Below are positions 27,517-64,000 of a stretch of DNA of 64,000 bases, piece by piece (within the stretch, counting starts at the first letter, position 1; every line of letters starts with the position of its first letter). A model generated the notes under the pieces. The model searched no databases and was not told the DNA's origin. It was given only the letters and a program-made list of their open reading frames with translations. Source of the DNA: Amia ocellicauda. Lineage: Eukaryota. The position numbers were made by a program, and so were the translations under genes. The stretch lies in NCBI RefSeq assembly GCF_036373705.1, contig NC_089863.1, positions 18,915,406 to 18,979,405 on the forward strand, given 5' to 3'.

Positions 27517-27722
27517 CTGAAACGGCAGGGCAGCATCAGAGTTGGCACCGCCGGCACCATTACCACGGGCACTACTACTACGATTATTACCACTTTTATT
27601 ATTACTACTAGTATAATAATATTCATAATAATTATTATGTTCATAGTAGCAGAAAAGCTATGTGCATGCACGAATGAGTGAGTGAGTGTGTGTATGGGTG
27701 AGTATGTATGGGAGCAGCTGAC

Positions 27723-27839
27723 CTGAGGGCCTCCAGCTCCAGCAGCTCTTTCCTGGCCTTCTCGGCCTGCGCCTGGTCACTGATGCGCTGCCTCTCCAGC
27801 CGTCCCCGAGCCTCTTGCTCCAGACGCTCCGCCTCGTGC
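27723..27839 (-). CDS. mvp: mvp exon ([39 protein letters not shown], ends phase 2)
   Basis: 112-bp intron. Acceptor (ct)n-cAG at 27841-27840. Frame of ORF 27641..27865. Donor CAG|GTCAGC at 27722-27721. Confidence 0.85.
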
Positions 27840-27951
27840 CTGAGAGAGAGAGAAACAGGAGTCAATACAGTACAGACACAGTGACTGACTAACTAATAGG
27901 TGTAAACAGCACTGCAGGCAGAGGTGTTACAGTGTGTGTGTGTGTGCGTAC

Positions 27952-28163
27952 CGTGCAGATGCCTCCTGTGAGTTGGTGGTGATCTCAATGGCCAGCTGCA
28001 CGCTCTTCTGCAGCGCGTCGCGGGTGCGCTGGTCCACCGGCTCCACGGACTGGATGTCCACGCTGGTGATCATCAGCCCGTTCTGGGGGAAGCACAGGCT
28101 GGAGCGCAGCTTCACCGACTCGTCGAAGCCGAACACGGCCGAGCAGATGATTCGGTTCGAGTT
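27952..28163 (-). CDS. mvp: mvp exon ([70 protein letters not shown], ends phase 2)
   Basis: Acceptor gggacccAG at 28165-28164. Frame of ORF 27927..28136. Donor ACG|GTACGC at 27951-27950. Confidence 0.85.
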
Positions 28164-28281
28164 CTGGGTCCCGGAGAGGTGTGGAGAGAGAGTTTAGCAC
28201 CTCAGGGCCTCAGTCAGTGTGTCGGCGTGTCAGTGTGCAAGTCAGTCAGTGTGTCAGCGTGTGAGGGTGTCAGGGTCACAC

Positions 28282-28426
28282 CTTGTGGAAGTCGTCGAAC
28301 TGCACGGAGGCAACGGCGCCCCTGATGCGGGAGGCCAGGGCCTTGCAGGCGTCGCCGATGAAGTCTGGCACAGAGAAGATCTTGGATGCCTCAGCACCCT
28401 TCGCATCCTGTGACACCTCGAAGTGC
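28282..28426 (-). CDS. mvp: mvp exon ([49 protein letters not shown])
   Basis: Acceptor ctcctctcAG at 28428-28427. Donor AAG|GTGTGA at 28281-28280. Matches human [48 protein letters not shown]. Confidence 0.85.
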
Positions 28427-28578
28427 CTGAGAGGAGCGGAGACACGGCACACTGGGTCACTCTGCAGCTCGTTAGTAGAGACACTCCATAGCTCGTTAAC
28501 CCCGAGTCACACTATAGGAAATACACATGGCACACACAGCCCAGCCCTGCCACACTCACACACTCAGCCCAGCTTTAC

Positions 28579-28776
28579 CAGTTGTAGGAGAGCTGCAGCT
28601 GCAGGCGGGCGTGGTCGGCGGTCTCAATGGTGATGACGTCGGTGCAGAAGTCGGGGCCCAGCAGCAGGCAGATGGCCTTGATGACGTTGGAGCGCTTGGG
28701 CTTGTCCCCCGACAGAGACAGCACGGTGAACTGCTCATCTGGTCCCAGCATCACCAGCTCAGGCCCAAACACCACC
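28579..28776 (-). CDS. mvp: mvp exon ([66 protein letters not shown], ends phase 2)
   Basis: Acceptor ctccctcAG at 28778-28777. Frame of ORF 28575..28775. Donor CTG|GTAAAG at 28578-28577. Confidence 0.9.
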
Positions 28777-28890
28777 CTGAGGGAGAGAGGGAGGGATTAT
28801 AAACACATTGACTGACTAGCTGAGTCTGTATCTAGCAGTCCAAATATTGCCAATATAGCCCAGTCTGTACCCAGCCATTCCCCACTGTAC

Positions 28891-29135
28891 CTGGCCTTCT
28901 TCTCTCTGTAGTCGTACACTTGCACAGCAGCGTTGTGTGGTACCCTGTAGGAGACAACGCGGGTGCGGTCCCTGGGCTCCTCGGGTCCCTGGCGTTCGTG
29001 CCCTCTCCGCTCCGAGCGGTCAGCCAGGGGGTCTTGGGCGGCGGCCAGCAGGCTCTCCACGTTGGGTGGCAGATCCTTCTCCCACAGCTCCTCGTCCTGG
29101 GTCAGCATGTAGGTGTGCCCGATCATGGCACGCAC
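28891..29135 (-). CDS. mvp: mvp exon ([81 protein letters not shown], ends phase 2)
   Basis: Acceptor cctccccAG at 29137-29136. Frame of ORF 28797..29135. Donor CAG|GTACAG at 28890-28889. Confidence 0.9.
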
Positions 29136-29550
29136 CTGGGGAGGGACCGGCCAATGGGGAGCGAGTTAGCGGGACCAAGGAGCCAATGAGGGCTTATTTG
29201 GGCAGGCTGGGGGTGGGGGAATTGAAACTGTCTGAGTTTGAGCCCATTGGTAAATTCCAACACTAGTTAGCATCTCTGTTCTCATAGTAACTGCATTGTC
29301 ATAAACAAGGTAGATGATACATGTGAGGGGGTCAATTTAAGTAACCGAAAATAACCCATATTCCCCATCAATGATAATGGGAAAATGCAAGTCACACAAT
29401 TCATAATCATTAATACTAGTGTAATCATTAAATCACTGACACTAGTAATGACATCACCAATCGTGATAATGACATCAATAAACACTACAAAGAAAGCCTC
29501 TTCCTCTTCCTCTTCCCCTCTCCTCCCTCCCTCCCTCCCTCTCTCTCTAC

Positions 29551-29745
29551 CTTCCCACTCTTGATGTCTCGGATGTAGATCCCCTCGTTCTCGTCCAGCG
29601 GTATGGCCTGTCGCTGTAGCAACACCTCCACCCCCACCGGTGGCACGTATTCCAGCGGCCCACGCAGCATCCAGCGGTCCCCGGGGCGACGGAGCACCCC
29701 CCTCTCCCCTTCCTCTCCCTCCTCCGCTTCCCGCTCCGTCTCCTG
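29551..29745 (-). CDS. mvp: mvp exon ([65 protein letters not shown])
   Basis: Acceptor (ct)n..cactcacAG at 29747-29746 ends a 2.1-kb intron that carries an antisense LINE. Frame of ORF 29485..29697. Donor AAG|GTAGAG at 29550-29549. Confidence 0.9.
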
Positions 29746-29879
29746 CTGTGAGTGAGAGAGAGAGAGAGAGAGGGCGAGTTAATACAGTGCAGACTTACTG
29801 ACCGGACACTGACACTGCACTGAGAGAGAGGGGCATATGATGCCTGCTTTAAAAGCATTGAGTTGAGAGAGAGAGAGAG

Positions 29880-31425
29880 AGAGAGATGACACAGAAGTCA
29901 AATTCCTGCTCTATGCGGATGGCCTAGTCCTGCTGTCGCCCACAGAGCAGGGGCTTCAGCAAAACCTGGCACTGCTAGAGCAGTACTGTCAGTCCTGGGC
30001 CCTGGCAGTAAACATGAAGAAGACAAAGATCATGATCTTCCAAAAAAATACTGTTTTATTAGGTTAAGTATTTTACAATCAAAATAAAAACAAACAAAAC
30101 AAATTTTAATACTTCCAAAAAAAGGCCAGACCTCAGGGAAACAAATACCACTTCACGCTAGGCAACACTACCCTAGAACACACCTCACACTACACTTACC
30201 TGGGCCTGACTATTAGTGCGTCAGGGGGTTTTAACCTGGCAGTGAAGGCACTCAAAGACAAAGCAAGAAGAGCTTTCTACGCAATCAGAAGAAGATTCTA
30301 TAACATTAATATTCCAGTCAAAATCTGGCTCAAACTAATTGACAGTGTGATCCAGCCCATTGCGCTGTACGGTAGTGAAGTATGGGGTCCACTCAGTCAA
30401 CAGGACTACACTAGGTGGGACAGACATCCAATAGAGACCCTGCATGCTGAACTCTATAGAAACATACTGCAGGTGCACAGGAACACACCAAACCACGCAT
30501 GCAGGGCAGAATTAGGCCACTTCCCAACCCTCATTAATATAAAGAAAAGAGCACTGAAATTCTGGATGCACCTGAAGAAAAGTGAGTCAGACTCACTCCA
30601 GTACAAGGCCCTCCAAACCCAAGAGCTCAGCCCTGAAAAGAGTCCCCTGAGTCAGCTGGCCCTGAAGCTCACGGCACTGACCCCCGCTAATACTGCGAAC
30701 AGAGACCAGCTTCAGGTCAGCACTGCTTACCTGCCCCCAATTAGAGTCAACCAAATCATAAAGATAACCAAAACCTCCTATCTGGAACATTGGAACAATG
30801 AAACCAAATCCCAAAGTAAATTGGATTGCTATCGGGCCCTAAACAGAGAATACACCCTGGCAGAGTCTCTCTTCACTGTCAGAGATACGAAGCAGAGACG
30901 GATCCTGACCAAGTACAGTGACCACAGCCTGGCCAGAGAGACGGGCCGACACAGGCAGAGCCGGCTGCCCAGAGAGGAGCAGCGCTGTGGTCACTGCGAG
31001 ACAGGAGAGGTCGAGACAGAGATGCACTTCCTCCTTCACTGCAATAAATATGCCAAAATAAGGGACACATTCTTTAATAAATTCATAAATATTATAAAAT
31101 AATTTTCTGAATTGATAAATCCCCTCCTGGGGGAGGGACACACAGCCCCCCTGGCTGCCCAATATGTAGCCGCCTGCCACTGTGAAAACATACATGAGCA
31201 CCAGCTGTAAACTTGTAAACTATAAATAAAGTAAATGTACATGTCTATTAAGATTTTATTTATAAATTATATTGTACTGTTTCAATTTTTTATTTTTTTT
31301 CCTCCTTTTTCTTACCTTTTATTATTTTTCAATGTATGTATATAATATCAACTGCTTTGGCAACACTACAAAACTGTTTGTCATGCCAATAAAGCACCCT
31401 TGAATTGAATTGAATTGAGAGAGAG
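29880..31425 (+). mobile_element. 5'-truncated non-LTR retrotransposon (L2/CR1-superfamily-like LINE) lying antisense inside an mvp intron
   Basis: The reverse-transcriptase motif ..LLYADGLVLLS.. lies near 29890. ORF 30242..31102 carries the RT thumb/C-terminal domain (..IALYGSEVWGP..) and ends with a zinc-knuckle-like segment (CGHCETGEVETEMHFLLHC). The 3' tail ..caaagcacccttgaattgaattgaattgag(ag)n recurs at other loci in this window. Confidence 0.75.
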
Positions 31426-31887
31426 AGATGAATACAGCCCTGACACAGAGAGAGAAGGGGGTGGTTAAACAGTGAGACACTAATATTATAGTGAATGGGA
31501 GACAGATACATATCTCAGCCCCAGCCACTCCCTCTTTCCGCTCATTCCCCCTCAGTGTCAGTGAAGCACCAGCATCCTTCCCTCTCTCTCTCTCTATTTA
31601 TATGGCCAGTCCGTACCAGTGTGTATATATGACCAGTCTGTATCAGTCTCTATATGGCAAGTCTATAACCCTTATCCAGGGTGACTTACAATTGTTACAA
31701 CATATCAAATTATTTTTACATTTTTTCACATTTTACATTACTGGAGCAATCTAGGTAAAGTATGGCCAGTCTGTACCAGTCTGAATATGACCAGACTGTC
31801 ATAGTGGTCTGTACATGGTCAGTAGAGCACAGTCTGTGTGTGGCTCATCTATAGCAGTGTCTACACCTTGCCCTCCCTCTTGCTCAC

Positions 31888-32013
31888 CCCCTCAGTGTCA
31901 GTGAAAGCCTCCACGGCTCTGAGCACCAGCCCCTCGTCCTCCGACAGGATGTACACGTCTTGGATGCCTTGTTCCAGGTTCTCCCCAGGTTGCAAGAAGA
32001 ACGACTTCTCCCC
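31888..32013 (-). CDS. mvp: mvp exon ([42 protein letters not shown])
   Basis: 99-bp intron. Acceptor (ct)n-cAG at 32015-32014. Donor GGG|GTGAGC at 31887-31886. An alternative in-frame donor AAG|GTGTAG 21 nt downstream would add VSKREGK. Confidence 0.8.
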
Positions 32014-32112
32014 CTGAGAGAGAGAGAGAGCGAGAGAGATGAATACACACACGGACACACAGACAGACACACACACAGTCACCCCCCCAACCCCTGCACC
32101 GCCGCCACCTAC

Positions 32113-32349
32113 CTTGACAACCCTCTTCTGGCCCAGCTGCGGCTTGCCGTCGGGCCCCAGGGGGTCCAGCACCACGCAGTACTGCCGGCCGGTCAGCGTG
32201 GTCACCTGCACCACGCCCACCACCTCCTCGCTCACCTCGGGGATGTGCGCCTCGCAGTCGGCCAGCGTGATCAGCCACTCCTCACCCGTGCGCCGCAGCC
32301 GGCCGCCGGCATCCCGGAACGAGCGCAGCGCCCGCACGTGGAGCGCTTT
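32113..32349 (-). CDS. mvp: mvp exon ([79 protein letters not shown])
   Basis: Acceptor ctcccAG at 32351-32350. Frame of ORF 31861..32436. Donor AAG|GTAGGT at 32112-32111. Confidence 0.9.
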
Positions 32350-32688
32350 CTGGGAGGGAGGGAGTGAGGGAGAGAAGGAAATGACGCTGTGCACTGTGAA
32401 TACAACATGTCTGTTTATATCTGATAAAGTCTTCAATATCTAATGATTGTATCTGTTGTTCCTGAACACTGGGCCTGTCTGGCAATGCTTTGGCCACACT
32501 GATGTCACTCAGTCATGCCCATAAAGCTTCCTTGATTTGAATTGAGAGAGAGAGGGGATGTAATAGAGACAGTCACTCACTGACTGACCGATAGAAACAC
32601 AACAAAGATCAGAGAGAGACTGACAGGCACACAGAGAGACAGTGGGACAGTCACATAGACAGACAGAGGGACGGATGAGCAGCAGTAC

Positions 32689-32783
32689 CTTTTCGGTCAG
32701 TACGAAGGCATTGACAATGTCGATCACCTCCTCGTGGACTCCGGGGAGGTAGGCCCCCACTTTACGCACCAGCCACTCCTCCC
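32689..32783 (-). CDS. mvp: mvp exon ([32 protein letters not shown])
   Basis: Acceptor gccccAG at 32785-32784. Frame of ORF 32509..32853. Donor AAG|GTACTG at 32688-32687. Confidence 0.85.
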
Positions 32784-32959
32784 CTGGGGCGACACACACA
32801 CTGTCACAGTATGACACAGTCTCACACAGACGATCACTTCCACATGCAGTCACACAGCAGTCTCACACATGTCACTCTGTGATTGCTATTCCTGTCCAGT
32901 GTGTAGAGGTCAGTGTCGTGTTTAGTGTGTAGTGAGCGGCGCTGCGGTCAGTGTCTCAC

Positions 32960-33091
32960 CAGTCACTCTCTGATTGCCGTTCCTGTCCAGCCCCTCCTTG
33001 CGGGCGCGCAGCCGGATGGCCTGGTTGTGCTGGATCACCGTGGCCTTCACCGTCTCCATGACCTCCACCTCCTTTCTGGGAATATAGGTCC
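32960..33091 (-). CDS. mvp: mvp exon ([44 protein letters not shown])
   Basis: Acceptor gcgttAG at 33093-33092. Donor ACTG|GTGAGA at 32959-32958. Matches human [32 protein letters not shown]. Confidence 0.8.
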
Positions 33092-33214
33092 CTAACGCAC
33101 AAACACAGCACAGCAGTGCGTCACACCCATCCTGTCAATCTGCTTGTCACTCTCTGTCACTATCACCCACTCACTCCCGGTTCCCCTGTCCCCCGTGTCC
33201 CCAGGATCTCTAAC

Positions 33215-33338
33215 CGGGCCCTTCGAACAGCCACTCGTCCCCAGCGATCCTCTTCTCCCCGTCGGCCTCCTCGAAGTCCAGCAGTGAACGCAGACGCAGG
33301 GCAGAGTCTGGCAGCACCACTTGCAGAGGAGCTATGTT
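33215..33338 (-). CDS. mvp: mvp exon ([41 protein letters not shown], ends phase 1)
   Basis: Acceptor cctccAG at 33340-33339. Frame of ORF 33210..33395. Donor CCG|GTTAGA at 33214-33213. Confidence 0.85.
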
Positions 33339-33627
33339 CTGGAGGTGGGGGGAGGGGGGTGGGAAGACAACCAGTGTGTACAGTGTGTCAGTCAATGTGT
33401 ACAGTCAGTGCATCAGTGTGTACAATGTGTCAGGGTGTACAGTATGTCAGTCCATGTGTACAGTGTGTCAGTCAGTGTGTAGTCAGTGTGTACAGTGCAT
33501 CAGCTAGAGTGTACAGTGCATCAGCCAGAGTGTACAGTCAGTGTGTACAGTGTGTCAATCAATGTGTACAGTCAGTGTGTACAGTGCGTTATCCAGTGTG
33601 TACAGTGTGTCAGTGTAGGATTCAGAC

Positions 33628-33823
33628 CTGCTGCAGCTCCTCTCCAGGGTACAGGGGAAAGGGCTCCTGGGTCAGCCGGATCTCCAGGTCGGCATGGCGC
33701 AGCTTGGCCTGCCCCGCCTGGTCGAACTGGACACGACCCTCGTCATCGCGGGCGACTGGATTGACGATGACACAATAATGGCGCGGGGGCACCATCAGCA
33801 TCCGCACTGGACTGAACAGTACC
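33628..33823 (-). CDS. mvp: mvp exon ([66 protein letters not shown])
   Basis: 84-bp intron. Acceptor (ct)n-cAG at 33825-33824. Same frame as ORF 33622..34056. Donor CAG|GTCTGA at 33627-33626. Confidence 0.85.
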
Positions 33824-33907
33824 CTGAGAGAGAGAGAGGAGAGAAAGGTAAGGAGGGAGGGAGGGAGGGAGTGTGTTTGCAGTGTATTACACGCCCAGTG
33901 TGCGTAC

Positions 33908-34049
33908 CTCTCATTGTCCTGGCGGATGTAGGTGTTGGGCCCGGTCTCGACGCGGGCGATATTGGTGTTCTGGTCGAGCACATGGATGTAGTGGTGGGGG
34001 GGGATGCGGATGATGGATTCAGCAGACATGTCCATACGGCTCTTCTTCG
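33908..34049 (-). CDS. mvp: mvp first major coding exon (..[46 protein letters not shown], ends phase 2)
   Basis: Acceptor (ct)n..cactaatgacAG at 34051-34050 precedes CGAAG. In frame with ORF 33622..34056. The conservative start is the internal ATG at 34035 (MDMSAES...). Matches the human N-terminus [42 protein letters not shown]. Donor AG|GTACGC at 33907-33906. Confidence 0.85.
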
Positions 34050-34990
34050 CTGTCATTAGTGAGAGAGAGAGAAAGAGTTAATATGGACACTGGGAGGACA
34101 CCTGCACAGAGGGAGGGAGGGAGGGAGGGAGGGACTGGCAGTCTAGTGCTGTGCTTTAAATAAGGCAAAATTGTGACTCCCGCCAGCAGTCCTGGACATA
34201 CACAGACAGTTTGCCTATAGGGAAATGTGTGTCAGGTAAGTAATCACAGTTTTGCCTTCAGATTCAGATTCAGATTTCAACAAAACTGCCACAGAGGGTC
34301 CAGGTGGGTCTGCCTAGCAGAGCCCCCGTGCACAGCACCCCCTGTGGCCCCCTCAGGCTATGACAGGTCACAACATAATTTCCTGCTAGTGTGACTGCGT
34401 GCCTTTCTTCCGGTAGTACAATTGCTAATCTCTCTCTTTCAATCAACTGTGGGAAATGGATCTTGAGCTTGGCAGGTGTGATTGTCTGGCGTTTGTTTAG
34501 TAATTTCAGCTCTCAAATTTGATTTTGCTCTTTTTTTATATGCTTTTGCTGGATATCTGTACAGCGGCTCTCCAGAGAGTTCTGTTTTGGAAAGCCATTT
34601 CTTTTATTTTGGTCGTTGCGGTGTTTAAACGCTTCCACTTGTCCCAACCTGGTTTTGCTCGGACAATTTCTCTACAAGTTTTCTGTCGAGCGGCGGTTTT
34701 AGCAGTGCCATTATGACTGGCTTTTCCTATATCTCATTGAGAAGTGGAACTGCCAGATTGAGTCCCAGCTCAGTTGGCTGGTACTGTGTGTTAAGGGACG
34801 TGTTCACTGGGTGCCTCTGTGCTGTTCAGAGCCCCGGTGTATGTTTCAGGTTGTACAGCTTACAGGGCAGGGCGGTGTCAGGAGCACTGTGAGTCGGAGC
34901 GGCTCTTTTTAGGAACACAGCGATTCATTTTGCTCCCTCTCTCTTGGTGCAGTGTCCGTGTACCGCAGTCCCCAGTCAGTCAGTGTGTCT

Positions 34991-43973: not shown

Positions 43974-45065
<1,092 letters not shown>

Positions 45066-45964
45066 GATATTGTCAAACACAAAAGTGATGTGCTCAGTAC
45101 AGAAGAGGCGCTTGGTGCCTGAGCGCGGGCTCGGCCAATCAGAGAGGAGCCCCACGAGGGATCAGCGCCGTAATCTCCTCCAGGTGCTGCTCATTTCAGC
45201 AAATTAAAAATAGCTGCAGAGAAGAAAACGACACAGGTCTCCCTCCAGTGAGGAGAGCAAAGCCAATCAGCCATTTAAAAGGACTGTGTTTAAAGAGACA
45301 GCCGCCCCAGGTCTCCTTAGAAAGCCTGTGAAAATTTTTTATAGGGGAGCAGATATTTTACTTATACACTCCTACTAACACCCGAGACCAGAGAAAGCCA
45401 TTGTTCTTGGGACTGCGCTAGATCCCCCCTTCAGGAGGAAGTGACATCAGAGGTCATTGTAAAAAAGCTGACTTAAGAGACATTCAGGGACTGGAAGAGG
45501 CAGAGAGAGAAAGAGGGGAGGGGGTAGAGAGAGAGGGGAGGAGTAAAACAGATGGAAACAGAAATAAATGCCAGAGAGTGTGAGAGGCAGAAAAGGGAGA
45601 GACAGAGAGTGAAGGAGGGGTGGGAGGTGGGGGGGTACTGTAATCGGAGGAACAAGGACAAAAGGTTAAAACAGAGAATGACAGAGAGAGAGAGTGACAG
45701 AAAGTGACTGAGAGAAAGAGAGACAGAGAGAAATAGAGAGAGGGAGAGATAGAGAGAGAGAAAAGGAAAGAGAGAAAGAGAGTGGAGATATTGTTGTAAC
45801 CCTGTCCTACCACGAGAGCTATATTTGGGGTATGAGCAGCTGTTAGACTGTGCAGTTAGAGTTACTGCATAAACAAGCACACACACATTGCACACACATA
45901 CAATATGCACACGCACACACACACAACATATACTGTTTAAAACGCATACACACACACACACGCA

Positions 45965-46270
45965 GAAGCCTTAACTGTATAGTATAGTATAGTATAGTAT
46001 AGTGACCAGACTGGAGCCAGTGTTGTGGGTACTATAGTATAGTATAGTATAGTGACCAGACTGGAGCCAGCGTTGTGGGTACTATAGTATAGTATAGTAT
46101 AGTATAGTATAGTATAGTATAGTATAGTATAGTATAATATAGTATAGTATAGTGGCCAGAATGGAGCCAGCGTTGTGGGTACTATAGTATAGTTTAGTAT
46201 AGTATAGTATAGGGCCAGACTGGAGCCAGTGCTGTGCAGTTCAGTGCAGTATAATGTAGTATAGGGCACA
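45965..46270. repeat. (GTATA)n pentanucleotide arrays alternating with a 30-bp motif (gaccagactggagccagcgttgtgggtacta), 4-5 copies
   Basis: The same composite recurs at 47757-47830, 62570-62740, 12250-12320 and 59820-59870, so it is a dispersed family. Confidence 0.8.
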
Positions 46271-46801: not shown

Positions 46802-48249
46802 CTGAGAGAGAGGGGGGGGTTAATACAGCATAAGCCAACTGACCGACTGAACAATGCAGCCCACTGACACTGTGCTGCGAGAGAAAGACACACACGTGCA
46901 GACAGACATTCGGCAGATACACATCAGACAAACAAACCGACTGGAAACTACAGAACACTAACACGGCACTAAGAGCCAGAGAGATAAATATAGAGCGATG
47001 CAGACACACAGATTAACTGAACACTGCAGTAGAGATGGTGGTGGGGGGTTTAATACAGACAAGCCCAAACATACTTTGGATTACACTCTGTGTTACACCT
47101 TGGATTTCCTGGATAGAAACTAATTAGGTTTCTAATTAGATTAACAAGGACAAAAGATTAAGCCTGAGAGAGAAGGAGGGGGAGGGGGGAGGGAGAGGAG
47201 ACAGAAGGGGAGTAGTACTGATTTGCTTCTAAAATGCATTGTGTGACTACAGTCTAAAGCACCAGTGGTATATTGCTATGTCAGTGATTACTAACGGTTT
47301 GTGCTGTCTGAAGAAGTAAGAAAATATTCTGCAGTCTACAGTACACTGCAGTCACTATCAGTCCACCAGAGAGTCAGTCAGTCAGTCATTCAGTGTGTCA
47401 GTCAGTCAGTGTGTCAGTCAGTCAGTCGATGTGTCAGTCAGTCAGTCAGTCCAGTGTTTCTGTCACTCTACACAAACACATACACTCACACACACACTCA
47501 ATCACTCACACAGTGCCTGGGTGCAGCAGACCTGACCTTCTCTACACTACTGCAGACCTTCATTCGTCCCAAACATTAAATATTTACTAATTATTGAACA
47601 GGGATCTTTGCAACACTTATCGACTGCGATGTGCAGACCCAGACCTGTGAATAATGGATGGACTTTTCCCTGTTTTCAGTGTTTGTGTCCAGTGGTCAGC
47701 ATCTTTCCTTTGCTGACACAAAAAATTACTGAAAACAGTGTGGTGTACCAGCGCTGTGTGGACTATAGTATAGTATAGTATAGTATAGTATAGTATAGGG
47801 GCCCAGACTGCAGCCAGCGCTGTGTATAGACACCCCCAGAAACACTCTCTCCTACTTCATGGAAAACTTCAGAATGAATTTAGAATTTATTTTAGTCATA
47901 GTAGTGTCGTAGAGTCCAAGGCTGAACTCGAAGCGTGTTGATATCCCACAGATCCCTTCTCCCCAGCAGCCACTGTATCTCTCGATTTAGAAAAACAAAA
48001 GTGCTTGTGACCTTCCTCAGAAACGCAGAGACACTTCCTTTTCCAGCAGCGTCTCTCCCTCCCCTATAGAAAGACACACACTGTCTTTCCACGGCCCCTA
48101 ATCTTCCACTCGTATTCCCAGTACTGAGTCCTCCGGCTCTGAATATTTTGTAATCTCGAGGGATGGGACAGTCCTGGAGCATCCGCAATACGTAAGGAAT
48201 TCGGTGCCATGGAATCGGCACGTACCGCAGGCACATAGAAGCGCATGCG

Positions 48250-52721: not shown

Positions 52722-55016
52722 GGTCTGAGCGGAAGAGGGCCAGAGAGAGAGACGGGAAAGGCCTCGGAAAACGCCACCGGGCGTCACAAAAATAAGATGT
52801 AAAAAAACGATATATATATACACAAAAATAACCCCCAAATGATGTTACTAATGAGAAATGATTGGGTGTTTAGGGGTGTGTGAGGTGTTCCCGCCTCTTT
52901 TTTAATATATAAACAACCCTCTCCAGAGAGTCAGTTGAAGTTCACTAGGCCACACGTGTTTACAGACGGATCTGTGGGTTTAGTATAAGGTGCCTCTTGC
53001 CTGCAAAGCCAATTGTCCAATTAACAACGCATGCGCTGTTATCAATAACGGTATTAATACAGTTTTAAGTAATAACTCATTTTCTGAATTATTCAATTTG
53101 AAATGGACGTGTCTGCCTTAACCCCCCTCCCTCCCCACCCCCCCAACCCCCCACCCCCGTCCCCCCCACGCAAAAGCTTAACAGATTGCTAACCTGTATT
53201 TTATTTCGTTAAATAGACGGAGAGAAAAAAGGATACAAAAGAAGAAAGAGGAATGGGGAGGGGGGGCAAGGGAGGGAGTGAATGCAAGAAGCAGTGGGGA
53301 GAGAGAGAGAGAAGACGAAATTCACTTTACTGTGGGCAGTATTTTGGTTCCCCCACACCTCTTCAGTTAGGAATAAAATGACTGTACAATTTATACGGAA
53401 TTTAATGTCTGTTACTAATCTTAAATCAATAAATAGACTCGCCAATGGATACACACAATTAGAATAGACAATGACCTTCTCTCTGTCCCTCACATCTCTC
53501 TGTGTTGGAGGGTTGGAGACGGAGAGGGGGATTGGGAGAGAGAATAAAATGTCAACCAAAATAGATCTGGCACGGATTAGACAACGGGGAGATTTAGAAA
53601 GATTACAGACACACACACACACACACACACAGAGGGAGAGATGGACGGATAAAGGGATAGACGGAGAAAGAGGGAGTCAAGGAGGAGGGGTGTGGGGGGC
53701 GAGGATGTGGGTTACGTGTGTCTGGGGGGTTATGAATGGGCAGAATGTGGAAAAGGAGAAAGGAAATCGAGGAAGGAGGGAGGTGGGGGGGATCAAATTG
53801 GGGAGTGGGAAGTGTCGGATGAAGGGAAGACAAGGCTGGGTTTGTCTAGTGGACGCAGGCCGGGCCACCACTGACAGACACAAACACACACTGCTCTCTC
53901 ATGATCACCCTCTGCCAATGCGGGAATTAAAACAATTAATAACGCTCGTCTGCAACGGTATATTTAGTTACAAGCGCTAACAACTGCACAAACACGCACA
54001 ATCGGCCGCATTCAATCAAAGCGCAGCTCCTGCCTCCCCGTCCCCCCGCACCACCGGCGACACAATAACGGGGCTGTTTCGCTGGATGCGCCCGTCCTTT
54101 CGTTCAATAGGGTTTTGGGTCTCGCAGACGGGACAGGATCAGCAAATGCACCCCCAGCACTGAGCTGGACCACGGGCCCAAATCCCAGTTTGTGTGCGGG
54201 TTATCTTTGGAGAAAATGCGCAATGCGCTATATAGTATAGTAGCAGACAACGGCCGAGCGCTCCGTATTGGAATTAGACGTCGCTATTCTTTTTATAACA
54301 CAAGCGAGGGTGATTATAATAATACTGATAATATTAGAAGAAAGCACACTTACGTCTTTGCAAAAAACATTTTTTTTTTAAATCCTCCACCGCTAAATAC
54401 CCAGTTCTCTCGCAGAATCCGTGCTTATTATTTAATTCCCCCAATACAAAAAAAAAAAAAAAAAAAAGACAATTTGCTGTACAGGAATGAAATTGTTTTT
54501 GCAAAAAAATCAAATGCAATCCTTTTTGTCCCTCTCTCGGCTCAATCCCGTCGCTCTTCTCCAGCAGCGACCGCCGGCGATCATCAATCAATGAGGCAGG
54601 ACTGATGCCCAGTCCGAGCAGCGGCGCACACACGGACCCACACGCACTGGCACTGGCACAGTCCCGGGTCGGGCCCAGTCTTGGCACTGGGAGGTAATCG
54701 CAACACTGTCGTCTGTGCACCCGGGTCGATATTAAACCTGGGTGGGCATCGATGTTGGATGTTATGTGTCAATTTTTTTTTTATTTCTATATATCTTTGG
54801 TTTTCTTTCAAAGGGCACAAGCGGCGCCTGTCGTGAAATGTAGGTCGAGCCGTGCCCGTGTCGCTGCGGCGCCGAGTCGATGTGTCTCTCTCCCCGGCTC
54901 AAGCGAGTCGATGCCCCGGCTTCCTGCGGCACAGACGACCGCGATAATTCTCCACATGTTTAGGAGCCGAGAGGAGGGGGGGGGATGGAGGGATGGAGGG
55001 AAGGGGAGGGGGGGTT

Positions 55017-55065
<49 letters not shown>

Positions 55066-55262
55066 CGCCACAGGCTGTCACAGCAGTCCCCAAGTCCTCC
55101 CTTCTTCCTCCCCCCGATAAAAACCAGAAGCCGCCGCTGTTTACAGACGCACCCGTGGGGACATCTCTGTTAGCCGCCGCATGAATGAACCGCTACTTCT
55201 GCGTGTATGTGCGTGTCTTTTTATTTATTTATTAAACGCGATCTTTCATTTATATAATTTGG

Positions 55263-55453: not shown

Positions 55454-57689
55454 GAATGAGTGAGAGAGGGGGGCTGGGGGTTATACAATGTCGCCGTGTG
55501 AGGCTGTCAGAAAACGGGAGGAGGGGGAGAGAGAGAAAGAGTCGTTTAAGGTCGAACGGCCTACTTTGGAAATCGCGGTTGTTTTTGAAGCAGGGGTCTT
55601 TCCGCCGCTAGGTAGCCGGCCTACCTGGGCCCCCCTGCCCGCCCCCCACTGCAGACAGGGCCGCGGTCTCGCAGTCTCTCCTTTCCCCTCAGGACAGAGG
55701 GTGCAGGGGGCACCTACAGGGCATCCCTCGTTGTACCCCTGCTGTACTTTTCTTTATACCGTGGAAACTCCCCACCTCTAAACTCAATGCCTTACGCCTG
55801 CGCCTTGGTCTGCTACATATGGCCTGTGGTGGCATAAAACGCTGGACCGGGAGAGACCTTGAGTCACTGTGCATGAGTGTTGGCTGCAGGATCGCACGAT
55901 GACTATGGTGGACACACAGGGCAGCACAGAGAAACAGGTGTAGGACAGTGGTGGCCCTGGGGGGGGTTTGTTCACCTTGCATGATCCCCCCCCTTGGAAA
56001 AAAGTGCCAAATCTGTCCCGGTGCACGTATGTTATCCAGGTATCAGGTGACAGCTGTGATATATTGCGACAGCGATGAGAGTCCGTGTATTTAACCCCTG
56101 GCAATGCACAAACACTTGGGGGGGCTACGGTTATTCTGGGGAGTCCTGCCAAATGTTTGATCCGCTCCCTCCTCTAAATGCAGCTGTCCCCCTTTAGCAT
56201 CTCCCTCCCCAAGTGTCAGATCTCTGACACCATCGCTTTGGTGTCAGGAACGGATTAGGTTTGTATCTAGCTTGCACAATACTGCTCAGACCCTTTTGCC
56301 ACCAGCATGCCCGGCCCAGTTTGGACTCAGGTTCTGAGTGGTGTTAGTGTGAAAGCACAGGCATGGGGAGAAGGAGGATTGGGGTTCTCCAGGACCGGGC
56401 TTGGACACCCCTACCATACAGTGAACCCAATCAGAACCCAGGTTGCTGAGAAATGGGTCTAAACCCAGGTTGGTGAGCTGGTGTGAAAGGGGCTATAGTC
56501 ACACAGGGATCTAGAGTAACATGTACTAGTGCCTGTGGATAATGCACTCAACCCAAGGCACCAAGCATTATTATTACAAATAATAATTACAATTTGTCTT
56601 AGCACACACACAGTATAGACACCCACACACAAAGTATACACACAGCATACAGACACACAGCTAGCCCCAGGAGAAAAATCCCAGACCAACATACCCCACC
56701 CCATTCCCCAAGGTGGCCAATCAGACACAGCAACACACGTGACCTTGGGCACCCCCTACTCCCCAGACACGCCCTCTTACCTCACAGAAAGGTCTCCCTC
56801 ATTTGTTCAGCACTAGGGGCCACACCGTCTGAGACTCCTGAAGTGGGGGACGCAACAAGATCCCACAGATCCCTGATGGACCTGCCCTGTCAGAAACACA
56901 CAGAAGCTAGCAGATTCCTTTAACGTGAGGTAGAATTGTGTGATCCCTATCTTTTCATACGCCAAAACAGACCCTTTTTGGTGTACGTAGAATAAAAGGA
57001 TGACACACATCTTCTATATCAATATCTAAATCTATATCTATATATCGATATCTGCATTTGTTTTATATGGGTGACTCTTCTGTCTTTCCCTCCCATATAA
57101 ACACACACACACATTGCGTTGCCCCTGGCCATGACAGCACACAACCCACGTACTGCTTTATCGAGCCGGCTGCACTGACCCCAGAGCAGGAGCAGCACGA
57201 AATCTATTATAACTTTTTACATTTGCCCCCCCCATGGACAGAAATAGGCCCGTATGCTATGTGTCCTGGCGCACAGATTATTAAACAGGTATCAGGTGGC
57301 ATGGTGTGATATTGTGGCAGTGCTGAAAGTCAGTATATTGATATTTATATTTAGCACAAGCACGTAGTCATTTCGGGGTGCACCGGCATGAGTTTCACCC
57401 ACAGCAAGTTGTACTGTTACAGTGTGACACTTTTATCAATCTGTTCTGTCCACATGCATAATATGTACATTACATACATACAGTTCAAATACTCTACCAG
57501 TGACAATATCCTAAATGTATTCCAGCTTACTACTACTGATTATAATAATAATAATGATGAAGATGATGAAGATGATGTGTCTTGTGTGGATCGACCGTAC
57601 CAGACCTTCGGCGTGCGGTTGCCGAGGTAACCTGTAATCCCGCCTCCTGTCAGGTCGGTAATCTGCCGGCGCGCTCCTGGCAACCGCGC

Positions 57690-57855
57690 CGCGATTGGCC
57701 AGCTCTCCGATCAATCATCATGACTCGCTGCCACTCATTGGTGACTGGCGGCGCCGTGAGCCAATAAAAGTCGAGCACGACGTCTGCCGATCTAATTGAC
57801 GTCAGCACCAGCCAATAGACCTCCGGGAGCAGAGAATAATGTGAGCTATAAAAGG
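57690..57855 (+). promoter_or_regulatory. promoter-like module: four CCAAT/ATTGG boxes, a CRE (TGACGTCA) and a TATA box (gctataaaagg) immediately upstream of the 43-bp array
   Basis: The motifs are gcgattggcc (~57693), tcattggtg (~57736), gagccaataaaag (~57770), attgacgtcagc (~57797), agccaatag (~57815) and tataaaagg (~57846). Confidence 0.4.
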
Positions 57856-57904
57856 AATAATCCACTAGTATTGTACTGCAGCCGCCTAATGTAACAGGAG
57901 CGTT

Positions 57905-58725
57905 TTAAAGTACTGTACTGTTACTACAGGCCCTTAATGGAACAGCACTATTCTACTGCACTGTTACTACAGCCCCCTATTGGAACAGCACTATTGTACT
58001 GCACTGTTACTACAGCCCCCTATTGGAACAGCACTATTCTACTGCACTGTTACTACAGCCCCCTATTGGAACAGCGCTGTTCTACTGCACCGTTACTACA
58101 GCCCCCTATTGGAACAGCACTATTCTACTGTACTGTTACTACAGCCCCCTATTGGAACAGCGCTATTCTACTGCACCGTTACTACAGCCCCCTATTGGAA
58201 CAGCCCTATTCTACTGCACTGTTACTACAGCCCCCTATTGGAACAGCGCTATTCTACTGCACCGTTACTACAGCCCCCTATTGGAAAAGCGCTATTCTAC
58301 AGCACTGTTACTACAGCCCCCTATTGGAACAGCGCTATTCTACTGCACCGTTACTACAGCCCCCTATTGGAACAGCCCTATTCTACTGCACTGTTACTAC
58401 AGCCCCCTATTGGAACAGCGCTATTCTACTGCACCGTTACTACAGCCCCCTATTGGAACAGCGCTATTCTACAGCACCGTTACTACAGCCCCCTATTGGA
58501 ACAGCGCTATTCTACTGCACTGTTACTACAGCCCCCTATTGGAACAGCGCTATTCTACAGCACCGTTACTACAGCCCCCTATTGGAACAGCGCTATTCTA
58601 CTGCACCGTTACTACAGCCCCCTATTGGAACAGCGCTATTCTACTGCACTGTTACTACAGACCCCTATTGGAACAGCACTATTCTACTGCACTGTTATTA
58701 CAGCCCCTTATTGTAAGGCAACTGT
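57905..58725 (+). repeat. tandem array of about 19 copies of a 43-bp unit (ccctattggaacagcgctattctactgcaccgttactacagcc)
   Basis: Direct inspection shows all three forward frames open across the array (ORFs of 259, 254 and 281 aa), as expected for a multiple-of-3-offset repeat and not for a gene. Each unit contains ATTGG, the CCAAT complement. Confidence 0.9.
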
Positions 58726-59871
58726 TCCAATGCACTTCCATTAAAAGACCCCTATTGCAACATAAGCTTTGCCTTGTATTACAGCCCCCTATGGCAACAG
58801 GCCTCTATATCAGTGCTATGATGGTAGACCGTCAGCAGGGAGCTGAATTATGTATCAGGCTGTTATGAAAGTTTCAGACAAAGGGAGGCTGGGCAAGTCC
58901 AAGGTGGACGAATCACATCGCTCCACTGCCTCCCGCTCTGAATAAAACATGAGCGTCTCCTCATTGCAGCCCCAGCCCTGACATCATCAGCCAGACTGGA
59001 CTTTATGAGTGTGTGTGCCTGTGAAAGTGTGTGCGTATGTGTGGGCAAGTTAGAGAGAGTGTGTGTGTGTGTGTTTGTGTATCTGTGTGCGCGTGAGAGA
59101 GAGAGAGTGTATGACTGTATAAGAATGTATGCGTGTGTGTCTGTTGATCAGTCTATATATCAGTTTATCTGCTAATCTGTCTGTCTGCCATTTAAAATAT
59201 ATCCCATTTTATGAAATAGAGAACAAAATATATCTACCATATTGTAAGAAATCCAATGTGTAAGGATTACATAGCACCATGCTGACTCAATAAGATGTAT
59301 ATTAAATAATGGTAAGAAAATAATCTAGAGAAACAGGTGGATCCCCAGACTCCGGGAAGGTTCATTTATAGATTGAGACTTTGAAAGCAGACAAAAAAAA
59401 AGTCCCTATATGGGAATAATTAGAAGAATCAATGAATATGCATTAAATACTGATCAACATGCAAGTCTAACAGATTATATTGGCTACTGAATAATCAACA
59501 ATATAGCTATAGTAGATAACTAACAACCTTTGGTACATTTCCACCTCAGCACTTCTGTAACCTTGTGGACGACTCTCAGAAACAACAGGAAGGTTTGTTA
59601 TCAATAAAGCCATCTTTACCTCATTCTCTGAAAGTGGCGAGGCAGGGAAATCAGATGTATTGACAGCTGAGTGTCTCTGTCTCCGAAGTTCAATATAGTT
59701 TGCTGATCAATATTAGACATTCTCTAACACTATAGAATTGCCAGCGCTGGATTAACAGCCTGGAATCTCTGATTATTTCTTAGGCCTGTAGTGTATTCTG
59801 GAAGTCACCTGTAGGTGGCGCCCCCTGGTGCACCATCTGTCAAGACCAGACTGGAGCCAGTATTTTGAGGG

Positions 59872-59919
<48 letters not shown>

Positions 59920-60051
59920 AGTACAGTTTATGCTGACTGCTCATTGACCTTGCATTGAGCCTCAGAGACAGAGACAGGCAGGACAGACAGAGAGAATAAG
60001 AAGGAGAAAAACAGAAAAAAACACCTGTTTTCTATAGATCTGTTATTGGCA

Positions 60052-60748: not shown

Positions 60749-63700
60749 CACACACAATGCACTGTAAACAAAAACAGTAGTATTGCAGTAGAGTATCACG
60801 GGGCTTAAGTGTCCTACTGTACATTTTACATTAAACTGTGTGTTAACCATAACTAATCCAGTACACTGAATACCTTCTGACTCCTTTCTGACGCCTTTGC
60901 CCCAGTTTGGCTCATTGTGTCTAACGTCAACACAGCGAGGGCTGGCCAGGATTCCAACCTACAGTCTGGCAGAGTTGAAACAAGTGTCATATCCACTGTG
61001 ACACCGTTCCACCCTGTGGCACTAGGGAAGACACCTGCATGTATTTTGGGATTTAGCCATTTCCGCACACTGTGAACCACACTGAATGAATTAACTTCCC
61101 AGTCCTGTACTCACCTGCACCAGGTTTGGAAAGACAGCTTGATATCTCATCATGCATGTACACCGTAGGTTACATGTTTACATTGGCAGTTGTGTTTACA
61201 AAGCCAGTTCCATCCCATGCAACTACACCCAGGCTGCAAATTCAGCACAATATGAAACCGGCACACCAGTCTGATCAATTCCCACAAAGGCCACCAAGCT
61301 GCCGACAATAGGTCTGGACTGAAACAATGTATCAAAGCGATACGAAGCCTGTCTGACTCAAAAAGACACATATTCATCAATCAATCAATCAATCAATCAA
61401 TTTATATTTGTATAACGCCCTTCGCAGGGTAGCCACAGAGGGCTTTACAGAGTGGTAAACATACAACAGACATATAGCAAAATAAAAGACAATAAATACA
61501 TTAATAAAATGAATAAAAATAGACCTTTATCAGTTGAAATGAACTAAAACACAGCAAACCAACATTAAAATAACACACAGCAAATTTGTACATAGCAGTA
61601 AACAAAAATGCAGTTATAAATCAGTTATCCTGACATCATCTTTCTACGTGTGCTAGCAGAACAGGGTTCTCAAATACCGGGAGCATGTTGTTGATCAATA
61701 GATTAGGATGATGAAACTTAAATAACAACGATGAGTTTGCAAAAGATACTGTCATATGGTGTTCTTTTCATAATATGGCAAGAGTCCAGGTACCTCCCAA
61801 AACACAACCTGTCCTGTTGACATTTCTGTCAACAGCCCAGGTACATTTTGACATAAGGAAGTTATTGTCTTAAAACATCACAGGAATTTAAACCTTGCAC
61901 GCTAGTATTTCATTACCTTCCTTTCACAACTCTAATCGTGCAAACAGTTCCTAAACTGACAGTCAGCCAGTCCTGTATTCATTTCAGCACAATATTTTGC
62001 TGACTTTTGATGTTGCCCACAGCTATATAAAGGTGGAGAACTACTGTCTATCTGTGATATAAAATTTGCAAAATACTGCTTCCTTATCAGACGATGGGCT
62101 TCTTAGAAATCTGAGCAAAGTACAGTAATAAAAACATAATGTTGTGTTTTACTGTGAGGAATACAGTTTATATGAGGAGCTTCAGCTGTTGAAGAAATAC
62201 AGTAGATTATAGCTGTGTGTGATATAAAATGTTAACAAGGCTGCTAAATGCTGCCTCCTTACCTGGCAATTGGCTTCTTAGAGATCTGAGCAATGTACAG
62301 AAAAAACAAAAAAACATCACAGTGTTTCACTATGAGGAATACAGTAATATACAGCATTTGTGTACAGTGTGAAATAGTCTCACACTCACACTGACACAGC
62401 CTGCGGAGAGAAAGAAAGAAAGGGTCGGGGATGGGGAGTGCTTCATTGAAAGACTATGACAGAAGAAGGGAAAGTGAAGGACAGAGAGGGAGAGGGACAA
62501 TGTCAGTGTCTATCAATCATTAATGTGGTCTGGACCAGAGTTCTTACACTGTCACCCACTGCACACATCCTGTACACACACACACACACACACACTCTGG
62601 CTATAGTCCACACAGTGCTGGTCCCTATACTGTACTATACTATAGTCCACACAGCACTGGCTCCAGTCTGGCCCCTATACTATACTATACTATACTATAC
62701 TATACTATACTATACTACAGTCCACACAGCGCTGGGGTGGGAGTTAACCCTTTCCTTCCAGTTTCTCTCACTTCTCAGGTTATGCACTGCAGCACCTATA
62801 CTGCACCTACCTTTTTCTCGGTGTGCGATTACTGTATCTTCTCCTATGCCTACCCCACCCTTTAGCACTTGACCGAACTGAGCAGAATCATGTCTGCAGC
62901 CAGATCATTAGTACAGGGACTTGCGCTTATTGTATACAGTAGCTTACTGATTGCATTTACTGCACTTTTTCATGCGTTGAAAAAGGTTTCTTGTGAAAAC
63001 TGTCAACTAATATGGGGGGTGGGTAGTATTTATTAATTTGCTTGCTAATTCTTTTACTTTACAGACAAAAGTGTACTGGATTGAGAACTTGTGAGACCTG
63101 AAAAACTACACCCAGCAGAGAGAAAGAGAAAGAGAGGGGCGGGTATAGGGGGAGTGTGCTTTGATGCGAAGGAGGGGAATGGTCGAGGGGAGGCAGAGAT
63201 GGATAAATATATGCTATTGAGAGAGAGAGAGAGAGAGAGTATAGTAAGTTTTGCTCTGTTTGCTATTTCGTGTGGGACCAGCTATAACGCGCAGTGAGTC
63301 AATTATTATGATTCTGATGATGATGGTGGTGGTGGTAATTATTAGTAGTGGCAGTATTGTTGTGGTCTTTATTGTTTTCATACTGGGAGAGGAGTGTGCG
63401 GTGCAGACAGCGGGCTGTGTCGCGTCCTGTGCCCGGGGCTCGGGCGCTCTCTGCCCGCCTGGCTCAGCGCTCCTGGCTGCCCGCAGCTTTAACCCTGCAG
63501 GCATGGAGACGAGTGGCACCCTGTCAGGAAATGAGAAAGATAATGGGACTGAAGTAGGACCAGTGCGTGAGGTGCCTTTCAATAGCACGTCAGTTGAGAA
63601 CAAGTTGGAAAGGCGTTTGCCACAGCGGGAGAGGTCCCCACCATGTCGTTTTGTCAGGGTTACCGTCTTTGCGGGTTTCACACATTGCTGTCAGTCTCCC

Positions 63701-64000
63701 AGTACGCCGCAAGGGGGCGCTCTTAGTGTGTCTGTATCATCTAACCCCCCTTCATCTTTCTCTCTGTCCCTCTATCACTGTTTACCCCTCCACCCCTCTT
63801 TTTGTCTCTCTCCACCGCTCCATTTCCATCTCTATTATTCACTCTGTTCCCCCCTCTCAAATTCAAATTAAACTCAGGTGAACTTCATTGGCATGCTTTA
63901 TGGTGGTGCCAAAGCATTTATCATACAGACATAACCATACTTTTAAAATCGTTGAAGATGTTGAACAATAATAATAAGATTAACTTTATATATATATATA

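Follow-up and report, generated by a model that had tools for sequence, protein, structure and literature searches.

A 64-kb window (the whole stretch of DNA that was analysed) contains, in intergenic sequence about 5 kb upstream of the start codon of a tlcd3b/FAM57B gene, a short block of promoter-type motifs that leads into a large tandem array, with its plus strand pointing away from the gene. The original prediction had left three readings open, namely an LTR/U3-like enhancer-promoter, a satellite able to trap transcription factors, and the promoter of a non-coding or repeat-derived transcript.

The block is 251 bp of unique sequence (57580-57830, no strand assigned) immediately 5' of the array. 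It has a GC content of 0.60 and 26 CpG, with a CpG observed/expected ratio (o/e) of 1.15, and by the definition of Gardiner-Garden and Frommer (at least 200 bp, GC of at least 0.50, and CpG o/e of at least 0.60) this promoter-like module is a CpG island. CpG-island status had not been part of the original prediction. The CpG o/e is 0.45 for the window, 0.35-0.39 for the flanks, 0.46 for the array core, and 0.20 for the two array edges together. The TpG/CpA o/e is 1.10 in the block versus 1.33-1.42 in the flanks, and the two main variable positions among the array units are consensus CpGs changed to TpG or CpA. Therefore, the neighboring DNA appears to have decayed by methylation while the block was spared. 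That CpGs persist in the block while those of the array edges and flanks have decayed suggests that the block is unmethylated in the germline; alternatively, a recent insertion could be the source of its high CpG content.

Four CCAAT-type boxes had been predicted, and all four were found, covering 123 bp. Boxes 1 (57694-57698, context tggCCAATcg) and 2 (57737-57741, tcaCCAATgag) are on the minus strand and read ATTGG on the plus strand; boxes 3 (57761-57765, gagCCAATaaa) and 4 (57812-57816, cagCCAATaga) are on the plus strand. The gaps are 43, 24, and 51 bp, and the predicted spacing of 30-45 bp did not hold. NF-Y prefers the flanks RRCCAATSR, and box 1 fits this preference best. A palindromic CRE/ATF site, TGACGTCA, was located by motif scan at 57797-57804 (no strand assigned), one of 3 in the entire 64-kb window, and a TATA box, TATAAAAG, at 57847-57854 on the plus strand, the sole match to TATAWAWR in 57560-57920; both had been called correctly beforehand. 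Upstream of the TATA box (57847) there are CCAAT boxes at -35 and -86, the CRE at -50, and the two inverted CCAAT boxes farther out. The locus thus has what defines a TATA promoter, a consensus TATA with activator sites within the proximal 200 bp. From the position of the TATA box, a plus-strand transcription start is predicted at approximately 57875-57880, which would place box 4 about 65 bp 5' of it. No canonical Inr (YYANWYY) was found on the plus strand in 57870-57885, where there is just a CA dinucleotide at 57879-57880. The minus strand had no TATA or Inr, save a TATAAT within an (ATA)n tract.

The motif combination was compared with 200 simulations of the window under a first-order Markov model. 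At least 4 CCAAT/ATTGG pentamers fell inside 125 bp in 59 of the 200 simulations, and the CCAAT cluster by itself is therefore not significant; the real window has a single cluster of this kind, the one in the block. When a full CRE and a TATA were required in addition to the cluster, 0 of 200 simulations yielded the combination, which had been picked post hoc in the original prediction. These data support a non-random combination of elements and a block with the apparent grammar of a TATA-containing Pol II promoter, much as had been proposed.

Tandem Repeats Finder placed the core of the array at 57911-58713 on the plus strand (consensus TACTGCACCGTTACTACAGCCCCCTATTGGAACAGCGCTATTC), with a period of 43, 18.7 copies, 94% matches, and a score of 1403. 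No other array in the window comes near it in strength, and the copy number agrees with the roughly 19 predicted. Local alignment to the consensus added, on the same strand, a decayed first unit at the 5' edge (57861-57910, z = 7.3 versus shuffles) and decayed units at the 3' edge (58714-58813, z = 10.9 versus shuffles), for a footprint of 57861-58813 and approximately 22 units when degenerate units are included. The first degenerate unit begins about 8 bp 3' of the TATA box, and the block does run directly into the array as described. A 25-nt core of the unit occurred 18 times in the window at up to 3 mismatches versus 0 expected. ATTGG, said to be carried by every unit, is perfect in 17 of the 19 in-register units, while the first unit reads AATGG and the last ATTGT. 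Identity between units is greater at even lags than at odd lags, as is usual in minisatellite turnover, and the result is a dimer pattern of 86 bp. The head-to-tail units of the array are of a size (about 10-100 bp) that defines a minisatellite or VNTR. The predicted RNA structure of the array was no better than that of shuffles (z = -0.38).

No other copy of the unit or array was found in the 64-kb window by repeat finder, mismatch search, or self-BLAST. The unit and the promoter core had zero exact-pattern matches in metagenome and viral contigs, and a full-text literature search with the sequences gave no match. The suggested satellite family was not supported, the unit being found neither elsewhere in the window, nor in those contigs, nor as a translated ORF.

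No similarity of the block to the 43-mer was detected (z = 0.4). The block is therefore not built of decayed repeat units, and since it is not repeat-derived, the 43-bp gap between boxes 1 and 2 is a coincidence. The same alignment score spoke against a caveat raised at the outset, that the CCAAT spacing might come from a further internal repeat. Block and array are adjacent but separate, and neither is derived from the other.

A dense array of NF-Y sites had also been proposed. CCAAT sites favorable for NF-Y have a purine at each of -2 and -1, with C or G at +1. Flanks of the CCAAT pentamer matter for NF-Y binding (PMC3730095). In the array, every unit has the context gttCCAATagg, with pyrimidines at -2/-1 and A at +1, and these unfavorable flanks do not support an array of high-affinity sites. 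The ATTGG of the unit is best described as a single weak site, a pentamer with poor flanks for NF-Y that was amplified 17 times, and not as 17 independent sites. Read on the minus strand, each unit also contains CCAATAGGGGGCTGT, which resembles a CTCF core, and the CTCF pattern CCASYAGRKGGCRSY is matched by 16 units with 2 mismatches each. In tandem arrays of CTCF sites such as DXZ4 or FIRRE, a strong core motif would be expected in every unit. Matches at this stringency are common, with 11 elsewhere in the window versus approximately 8 expected, and so the match in the array is probably one weak hit amplified. A much better CTCF-like pair is present at 59808-59831.

The block had been likened to heat-shock, histone, and cell-cycle promoters, a comparison that the motif content did not bear out. 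There was no heat-shock element (GAANNTTC or TTCNNGAA) in 57560-57920; GC-box, E2F, octamer, NRF1, YY1, and ETS motifs were absent from the block; and there was no CHR, canonical ERSE, or histone ORF. Multi-CCAAT promoters of the G2/M class have boxes about 32-33 bp apart and CHR/CDE elements, and are TATA-less. The block resembles members of this class (cyclin B, cdc25C, topoisomerase II alpha) in that several CCAAT boxes, some direct and some inverted, lie within about 200 bp of the putative start; however, its gaps are 43, 24, and 51 bp, it has a TATA box, TTYGAA and CHR/CDE were not found, and no gene follows within the window. Likewise, it recalls ER-stress promoters, as GCACG, one mismatch from the CCACG half-site, stands at N9 of box 3, but no exact CCAAT-N9-CCACG was found, and the one relaxed match (CCAAT-N9-GCACG at 57761) is compatible with chance. 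Both classes were rejected.

The three long plus-strand ORFs in the array are frame-cycling artefacts because 43 is not a multiple of 3, as had been recognized in the original prediction, and neither the translated array ORFs nor the block ORF had homologues among 5.8 billion proteins. Downstream of the array, no coding exon was found in 58.9-64.0 kb. The lone exon-like ORF there (63503-63868) resembles nothing but a junk repeat-derived protein, which agrees with the earlier statement, within the window, that no host ORF follows. A promoter for a downstream host gene, such as aldolase, the neighbor in human 16p11.2, was rejected on the lack of coding exons in that interval; also against it, the gene upstream of tlcd3b in tarpon shares the strand of tlcd3b. 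Motif scanning revealed an AATAAA hexamer on the plus strand at 58942-58947, a possible poly(A) signal for a read-through transcript. It is weak evidence because the chance of one within 250 bp is 22%. Splice donors matching at 8 or more of the 9 positions, the threshold for a strong site, were not found in or 3' of the array. On the minus strand, a donor-like GAG|GTAAGAG is located at 56780. There were no tRNA/SINE heads, and Rfam at gathering thresholds gave no match in the whole window. A permissive Rfam scan of 56.5-60.2 kb gave only plant-miRNA models; these fell on the (AG)n/(CT)n microsatellite of 59.87-60.11 kb and were dismissed as artefacts.

The tlcd3b start codon is near 52721 on the minus strand, and the exons of the gene, including the first coding exon, align to tarpon and gar tlcd3b; a short non-coding element at 53554-53609 aligns to tarpon. 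The best protein identity in the searched collections was 76-86%. The core of tlcd3b is about 93% identical to that of spotted gar, which suggests that the DNA comes from a holostean such as bowfin. A larger CpG island on the minus strand (53651-55250, 94 CpG, o/e 0.89) is probably the promoter of this tlcd3b-like gene, and the block lies 2.3 kb beyond it with no gene between. Block and array gave no alignment to the equivalent region of gar or tarpon in DNA or translated comparison, and no CCAAT/CRE/TATA cluster turned up when the 10 kb 5' of tlcd3b was scanned for motifs in each species. The block is not conserved in these fish, and purifying selection is therefore without evidence. Gar has four large unrelated minisatellites (units of 77, 51, 66, and 66 bp) in the 10 kb upstream of its tlcd3b; there, the locus lies 2.3 Mb from a chromosome end. 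Judged by the gar arrays and this position, the region upstream of tlcd3b appears to be prone to minisatellite birth.

The proposed LTR/U3 identity was not supported. Candidates with TG...CA ends and a target-site duplication numbered 18 (14, 3, and 1 for duplications of 4, 5, and 6 bp, versus approximately 9, 2, and 0.5 expected), which is chance level. There were no terminal inverted repeats but (AC)n/(GT)n, no partner LTR or second copy of the block or array in 64 kb, and no RT or gag ORFs within 20 kb. The search that had been suggested, for a matching second LTR with a target-site duplication, thus returned nothing beyond chance. Moreover, the array starts 8 bp downstream of the sole consensus TATA, and is not placed as the upstream enhancer repeats of a U3 would be.

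We favor, with about even confidence, the reading of the block as an orphan CpG-island promoter that is lineage-specific and free of methylation in the germline, and of the array as an ordinary minisatellite at its 3' edge. The block would have kept its CpGs through germline non-methylation and would be a TATA-containing Pol II promoter, in which TATAAAAG on the plus strand is preceded by a perfect CRE and by four CCAAT boxes, two in each orientation. The 43-bp minisatellite, presumably confined to one locus, may have arisen through slippage and unequal exchange, starting from the bases immediately 3' of the TATA box, in which case the ATTGG of the unit would be a passenger of amplification rather than a selected NF-Y site. 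Because the array abuts the TATA box, transcription from an active promoter would pass through it: a start near 57875-57880 would lead straight into the array, and the predicted product is a repeat-rich non-coding RNA of about 1.1 kb. Divergent transcription toward tlcd3b may also occur, as at many CpG islands.

Could the locus instead be a transposable-element fragment, such as an old solo LTR or the end of a non-autonomous element that carries its regulatory sequences, with the block as the promoter of the element and the array as an internal VNTR? The human ERV-9/LTR12 family, whose repeat unit is about 40 bp, is the model for this explanation. LTRs are rich in NF-Y sites, and ERV-9/LTR12 has tandem repeats beside its promoter that carry CCAAT and GATA motifs and are bound by NF-Y (PMC3730095). 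That precedent argues for a transposon, as do the compact CCAAT, CRE, and TATA promoter with no host gene behind it, which is typical of a retroviral U3, the fact that gar and tarpon lack block and array in the orthologous region, and the AATAAA 3' of the array. Other transposons, for example Tc1 and LINE elements, are present in the window, which also fits. We nevertheless consider this explanation unlikely. Ends and target-site duplications are at chance level without real terminal inverted repeats, no partner or other copy is present in 64 kb, no gag/pol/RT or transposase adjoins, and the protein set with no homologue included junk ORFs of fish repeats. A methylated transposon as old as the decayed array edges should also lack CpGs, whereas the block has an o/e of 1.15. 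As to ERV-9/LTR12 itself, which we compared by description only, the likeness lies in units of about 40 bp with one CCAAT pentamer each, beside a CCAAT/TATA promoter with no host ORF; unlike it, the present array is 3' of the TATA box rather than upstream, the units are without GATA and have poor CCAAT flanks, LTR termini and retroviral genes are missing here, and the host is a fish.

The bare coincidence of a GC-rich unique remnant, containing common short motifs, with a neutral minisatellite is quite unlikely in our estimation. The simulations are consistent with it insofar as 30% of simulated windows had at least 4 CCAAT within 125 bp, and so are the chance-level AATAAA, the absence of conservation in gar and tarpon, the absence of an Inr or of the defining element of any specific promoter class, and the post hoc choice of the region. 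However, the full motif combination arose in none of the 200 simulations, the TATA box is a sensible 35 bp past the proximal CCAAT, and a CpG o/e of 1.15 with no TpG/CpA excess amid DNA of 0.2-0.46 needs either protection from methylation or a very recent origin. We regard it as very unlikely that the locus is a distal regulatory element of tlcd3b, whether an alternative or divergent promoter, an enhancer, or an insulator. Its position 2.3 kb from the tlcd3b CpG island with no intervening gene would suit such a role, and the CCAAT boxes in the best context (57694 and 57737) face tlcd3b on the minus strand, as does the donor-like sequence at 56780; the 16 units with a CTCF-pattern match and the better CTCF-like pair would suit an insulator. 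In contrast, the minus strand offers only the TATAAT of the (ATA)n tract in place of a TATA or Inr, CTCF matches at two mismatches are commonplace in the window, and no equivalent was found upstream of tlcd3b in gar or tarpon. Finally, block and array could form a self-contained lineage-specific Pol II unit (promoter, about 1 kb of repeats, and AATAAA) that acts on the tlcd3b promoter, which we think highly improbable; if true, its RNA or its approximately 17 weak NF-Y/CTCF-like sites might serve as a local sink for factors, a boundary, or a source of transcriptional interference.

The array is like a locus-specific VNTR in its head-to-tail units of 10-100 bp, its homogenized center with decayed edges, its dimer-level order, its unit variants that are mostly CpG transitions, its single copy in the window, and the array-rich corresponding region of gar; unlike the usual VNTR, it abuts a CpG island about 8 bp past a consensus TATA. 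CpG-island promoters are mostly TATA-less. The block is like an orphan promoter of this kind in being intergenic, at least 200 bp long, and above the GC and CpG thresholds, with NF-Y and CREB/ATF motifs, but differs from most in its very small size (about 250 bp) and strong TATA. Juxtapositions of promoters with VNTRs, and repeats bearing NF-Y motifs, are already well documented in mammals, and this locus neither opens nor settles a long-standing question. If the block is active, the locus would be an example of a minisatellite that was born at the very start of the sequence transcribed from a young promoter, and the multiplication of one chance pentamer into an apparent "binding-site array" would be a caution for motif-based annotation.

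Tandem Repeats Finder, together with reading of 57300-59200, placed a tandem array with a period of 43 bp at 57911-58713 (18.7 copies, 94% matches, score 1403); its score is 4 times that of the runner-up array in a window full of microsatellites. Units aligned in register on the + strand gave the consensus TACTGCACCGTTACTACAGCCCCCTATTGGAACAGCGCTATTC. Local alignment to this consensus identified a decayed unit at 57861-57910 (z=7.3) and decayed units at 58714-58813 (z=10.9). Because these extend the array at both sides, the footprint is approximately 57861-58813, or about 22 units. ATTGG had been assigned to every unit and was perfect in 17, but the first unit reads AATGG and the last ATTGT. 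Units at even lags were more alike (identity 0.96) than those at odd lags (0.95), which gives an 86-bp dimer pattern. Variation falls mainly at two positions, precisely the CpGs of the consensus, which are seen as TG or CA, particularly near the edges. A minisatellite normally looks like this, with a homogenized center and decay through methylation-driven transitions. As had been proposed, the long ORFs on the + strand, three in all and without homologues, are artefacts of the repeat: its 43-bp period is not divisible by 3, and the unit is stop-free on that strand.

All of the promoter elements named in the original prediction were present in a unique block upstream of the array. The motif scan located four CCAAT-type boxes (ATTGG at 57694 and 57737, CCAAT at 57761 and 57812), a CRE at 57797 (TGACGTCA), and a TATA box at 57847 (TATAAAAG). 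The boxes are 43, 24, and 51 bp apart, not 30-45 bp as predicted. The block did not resemble the 43-mer consensus (z=0.4) and is not made of decayed units; the 43 bp between the first two boxes is therefore a coincidence, and the spacing is not a by-product of a further internal repeat. No HSE, CHR, E2F site, GC box, octamer, or exact ERSE was found in the block by motif scan. Heat-shock, cell-cycle, and histone classes, with which the architecture had been compared, and the ER-stress class are unsupported because their defining motifs are absent; one CCAAT-N9-GCACG is an ERSE with a single mismatch and is compatible with chance. A canonical Inr was not found at the predicted start, which offers only a CA dinucleotide (57879-57880), 33 bp 3' of the TATA box. 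An AATAAA at 58942 was not significant (22% chance of one per 250 bp).

NF-Y prefers purines at -2 and -1 and C or G at +1 in the CCAAT flanks. Boxes 57694 (tggCCAATcg) and 57737 (tcaCCAATgag) are favorable, and the array flank, gttCCAATagg in every unit, is unfavorable. Flanking bases affect binding at CCAAT (PMC3730095). The proposed dense array of NF-Y sites is not supported, and its 17 sites represent a single amplified event, not independent evidence of selection. The - strand of the unit reads CCAATAGGGGGCTGT, which differs from the CTCF pattern at 2 positions; matches of this quality are frequent in the window (11 outside the array versus approximately 8 expected). At 59808-59831, two overlapping near-consensus CTCF-type cores in CACCTGTAGGTGGCGCCCCCTGGTGCACC, each 1 mismatch from CCASYAGRKGGCRSY, match far better than the array units.

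The window is DNA of a ray-finned fish. The neighboring gene, at 43.97-52.72 kb on the - strand, has a TLC domain, and its assembled protein matches tlcd3b/FAM57B ("ceramide synthase") from many fish species. Over the core, spotted gar was clearly closest, with gar-specific residues such as KGHGSGPG, but overall identity was only 76-86%; the source is therefore probably a holostean related to gar. Exons of major vault protein (MVP) lie at 27276-34056 (-), and the tlcd3b-MVP adjacency is common to the window and tarpon. The window also holds a Tc1-like transposase in two ORFs (5437-6449, +) and a LINE reverse-transcriptase fragment (30242-31102, +). A complex purine-rich tandem array of 18/28/72/90 bp, (AGAGACAGTGAGGGAT)n-like, occupies 44616-45067 within a tlcd3b intron. 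A sharp-edged 108-bp segment, (GA)n-G10-TGAGTACAGTTTATGCTGACTGCTCATTGACC..., occurs at two sites with 99% identity: 59887-59994, which lies 1.1 kb 3' of the array, and 44469-44575, at the 3' end of the intron that precedes the final tlcd3b exon. Three origins would fit: a short duplication of very recent date, a fragment of a young repeat, or an artefact of the assembly. A dispersed family, (TATAG)n plus a GACCAGACTGGAGCCAGCG...GTGGGTAC module, occurs at 45977-46236, 47711-47798, and 62618-62735 (inverted), with a fragment at 59843-59862. Its copies at 46.0 and 62.6 kb form an inverted pair (90-93%, 16.4 kb apart) that brackets tlcd3b exons, the gene's likely promoter, the block, and the array.

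Of the internal evidence, the contrast in CpG content weighs most. The block is a small CpG island at 57580-57830 (251 bp, GC 0.60, 26 CpG, o/e 1.15), compared to an o/e of 0.45 for the window average, 0.35-0.39 in the block flanks, and 0.20 at the edges and 0.46 in the core of the array. TpG/CpA showed no excess in the block and was 1.33-1.42 in the flanks. Array edges, core, and flanks show methylation-type decay, whereas the block keeps its CpGs. The simplest reading is that the block may be unmethylated in the germline, which would have kept its CpGs. Since such an island looks like an active promoter, we favor, at about an even chance, a predicted orphan CpG-island/TATA promoter, with the minisatellite seeded from what would be the first bases of its transcript. 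A non-functional coincidence is improbable. CCAAT/ATTGG occurs at 1.8 per kb outside the array, and at least 4 in 125 bp were reached in 59 of 200 windows simulated with a first-order Markov model, so the CCAAT cluster alone, the only one in the real window, is unremarkable; however, no simulation (0/200) combined it with a full CRE and TATA.

A transposon-derived promoter with a VNTR is unlikely, if somewhat less so than coincidence. The nearest described architecture is the U3 of human ERV-9/LTR12, in which repeats that carry CCAAT stand in tandem beside the LTR promoter and are bound by NF-Y (PMC3730095). Here, however, the repeats lie on the opposite side of the TATA box, and the features that define an LTR were looked for and not found. 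The suggested second LTR was absent, with no second copy of block or unit in the 64-kb window, and TG...CA ends flanked by target-site duplications of 4, 5, and 6 bp numbered 14, 3, and 1 in a systematic scan, versus approximately 9, 2, and 0.5 expected. Terminal inverted repeats were only (AC)n/(GT)n, and no RT, gag, or transposase ORF was nearby. No tRNA-like SINE head or Rfam family was found, and exact-pattern scans of metagenome and viral contigs had no match. Neither did the translated array and block in a protein collection that includes junk ORFs of fish repeats, such as P0122. Least probable is a distal regulatory or divergent promoter element of tlcd3b. The window's largest CpG island, 53651-55250, is likely the tlcd3b promoter. 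The block forms an island of its own another 2.3 kb upstream, and its TATA box faces away from the gene. In comparisons with tlcd3b of tarpon (L001) and gar (L002), each locus taken with 10-kb flanks, the exons aligned to both, and nothing aligned from approximately 53.65 to 59.0 kb. The only intergenic non-coding conservation found was a short element upstream of the start codon (53554-53609, 89% with tarpon L001 8966-9020). Translated comparison of 53-64 kb to the tarpon locus gave no match, and a motif scan of the 10 kb upstream of tlcd3b showed neither a full CRE nor a cluster of CCAAT boxes in either species.

The predicted absence of a host ORF downstream holds within the window, as 58.9-64.0 kb has no evident coding exon. 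The next upstream gene in tarpon is on the same strand as tlcd3b. An exon-like ORF at 63503-63868 (+), adjoining a CpG-rich patch, was rejected as a host exon; its one library match was P0122, a 1777-aa repetitive junk protein, matched in 12 modules. Within the ORF, 30 bp (63682-63711) resemble the unit of a 51-bp minisatellite upstream of gar tlcd3b (L002 3444-6085), hinting at shared ancestral sequence that may have been amplified in gar. Gar carries four large unrelated minisatellites upstream of tlcd3b (77 bp x 33, 51 bp x 50, 66 bp x 14, and 66 bp x 5), all in L002 1-10000, and the locus sits 2.3 Mb from the end of its chromosome; the intergenic region evidently tends toward minisatellite birth, of which the 43-mer array is a lineage-specific instance. 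Hundreds of copies of a unit of approximately 62 bp also fill the gar tlcd3b introns (L002 10300-29000) and 3' flank. The safest filing for the block and array is a locus-specific minisatellite adjoining an orphan CpG island, both of which belong to known kinds.
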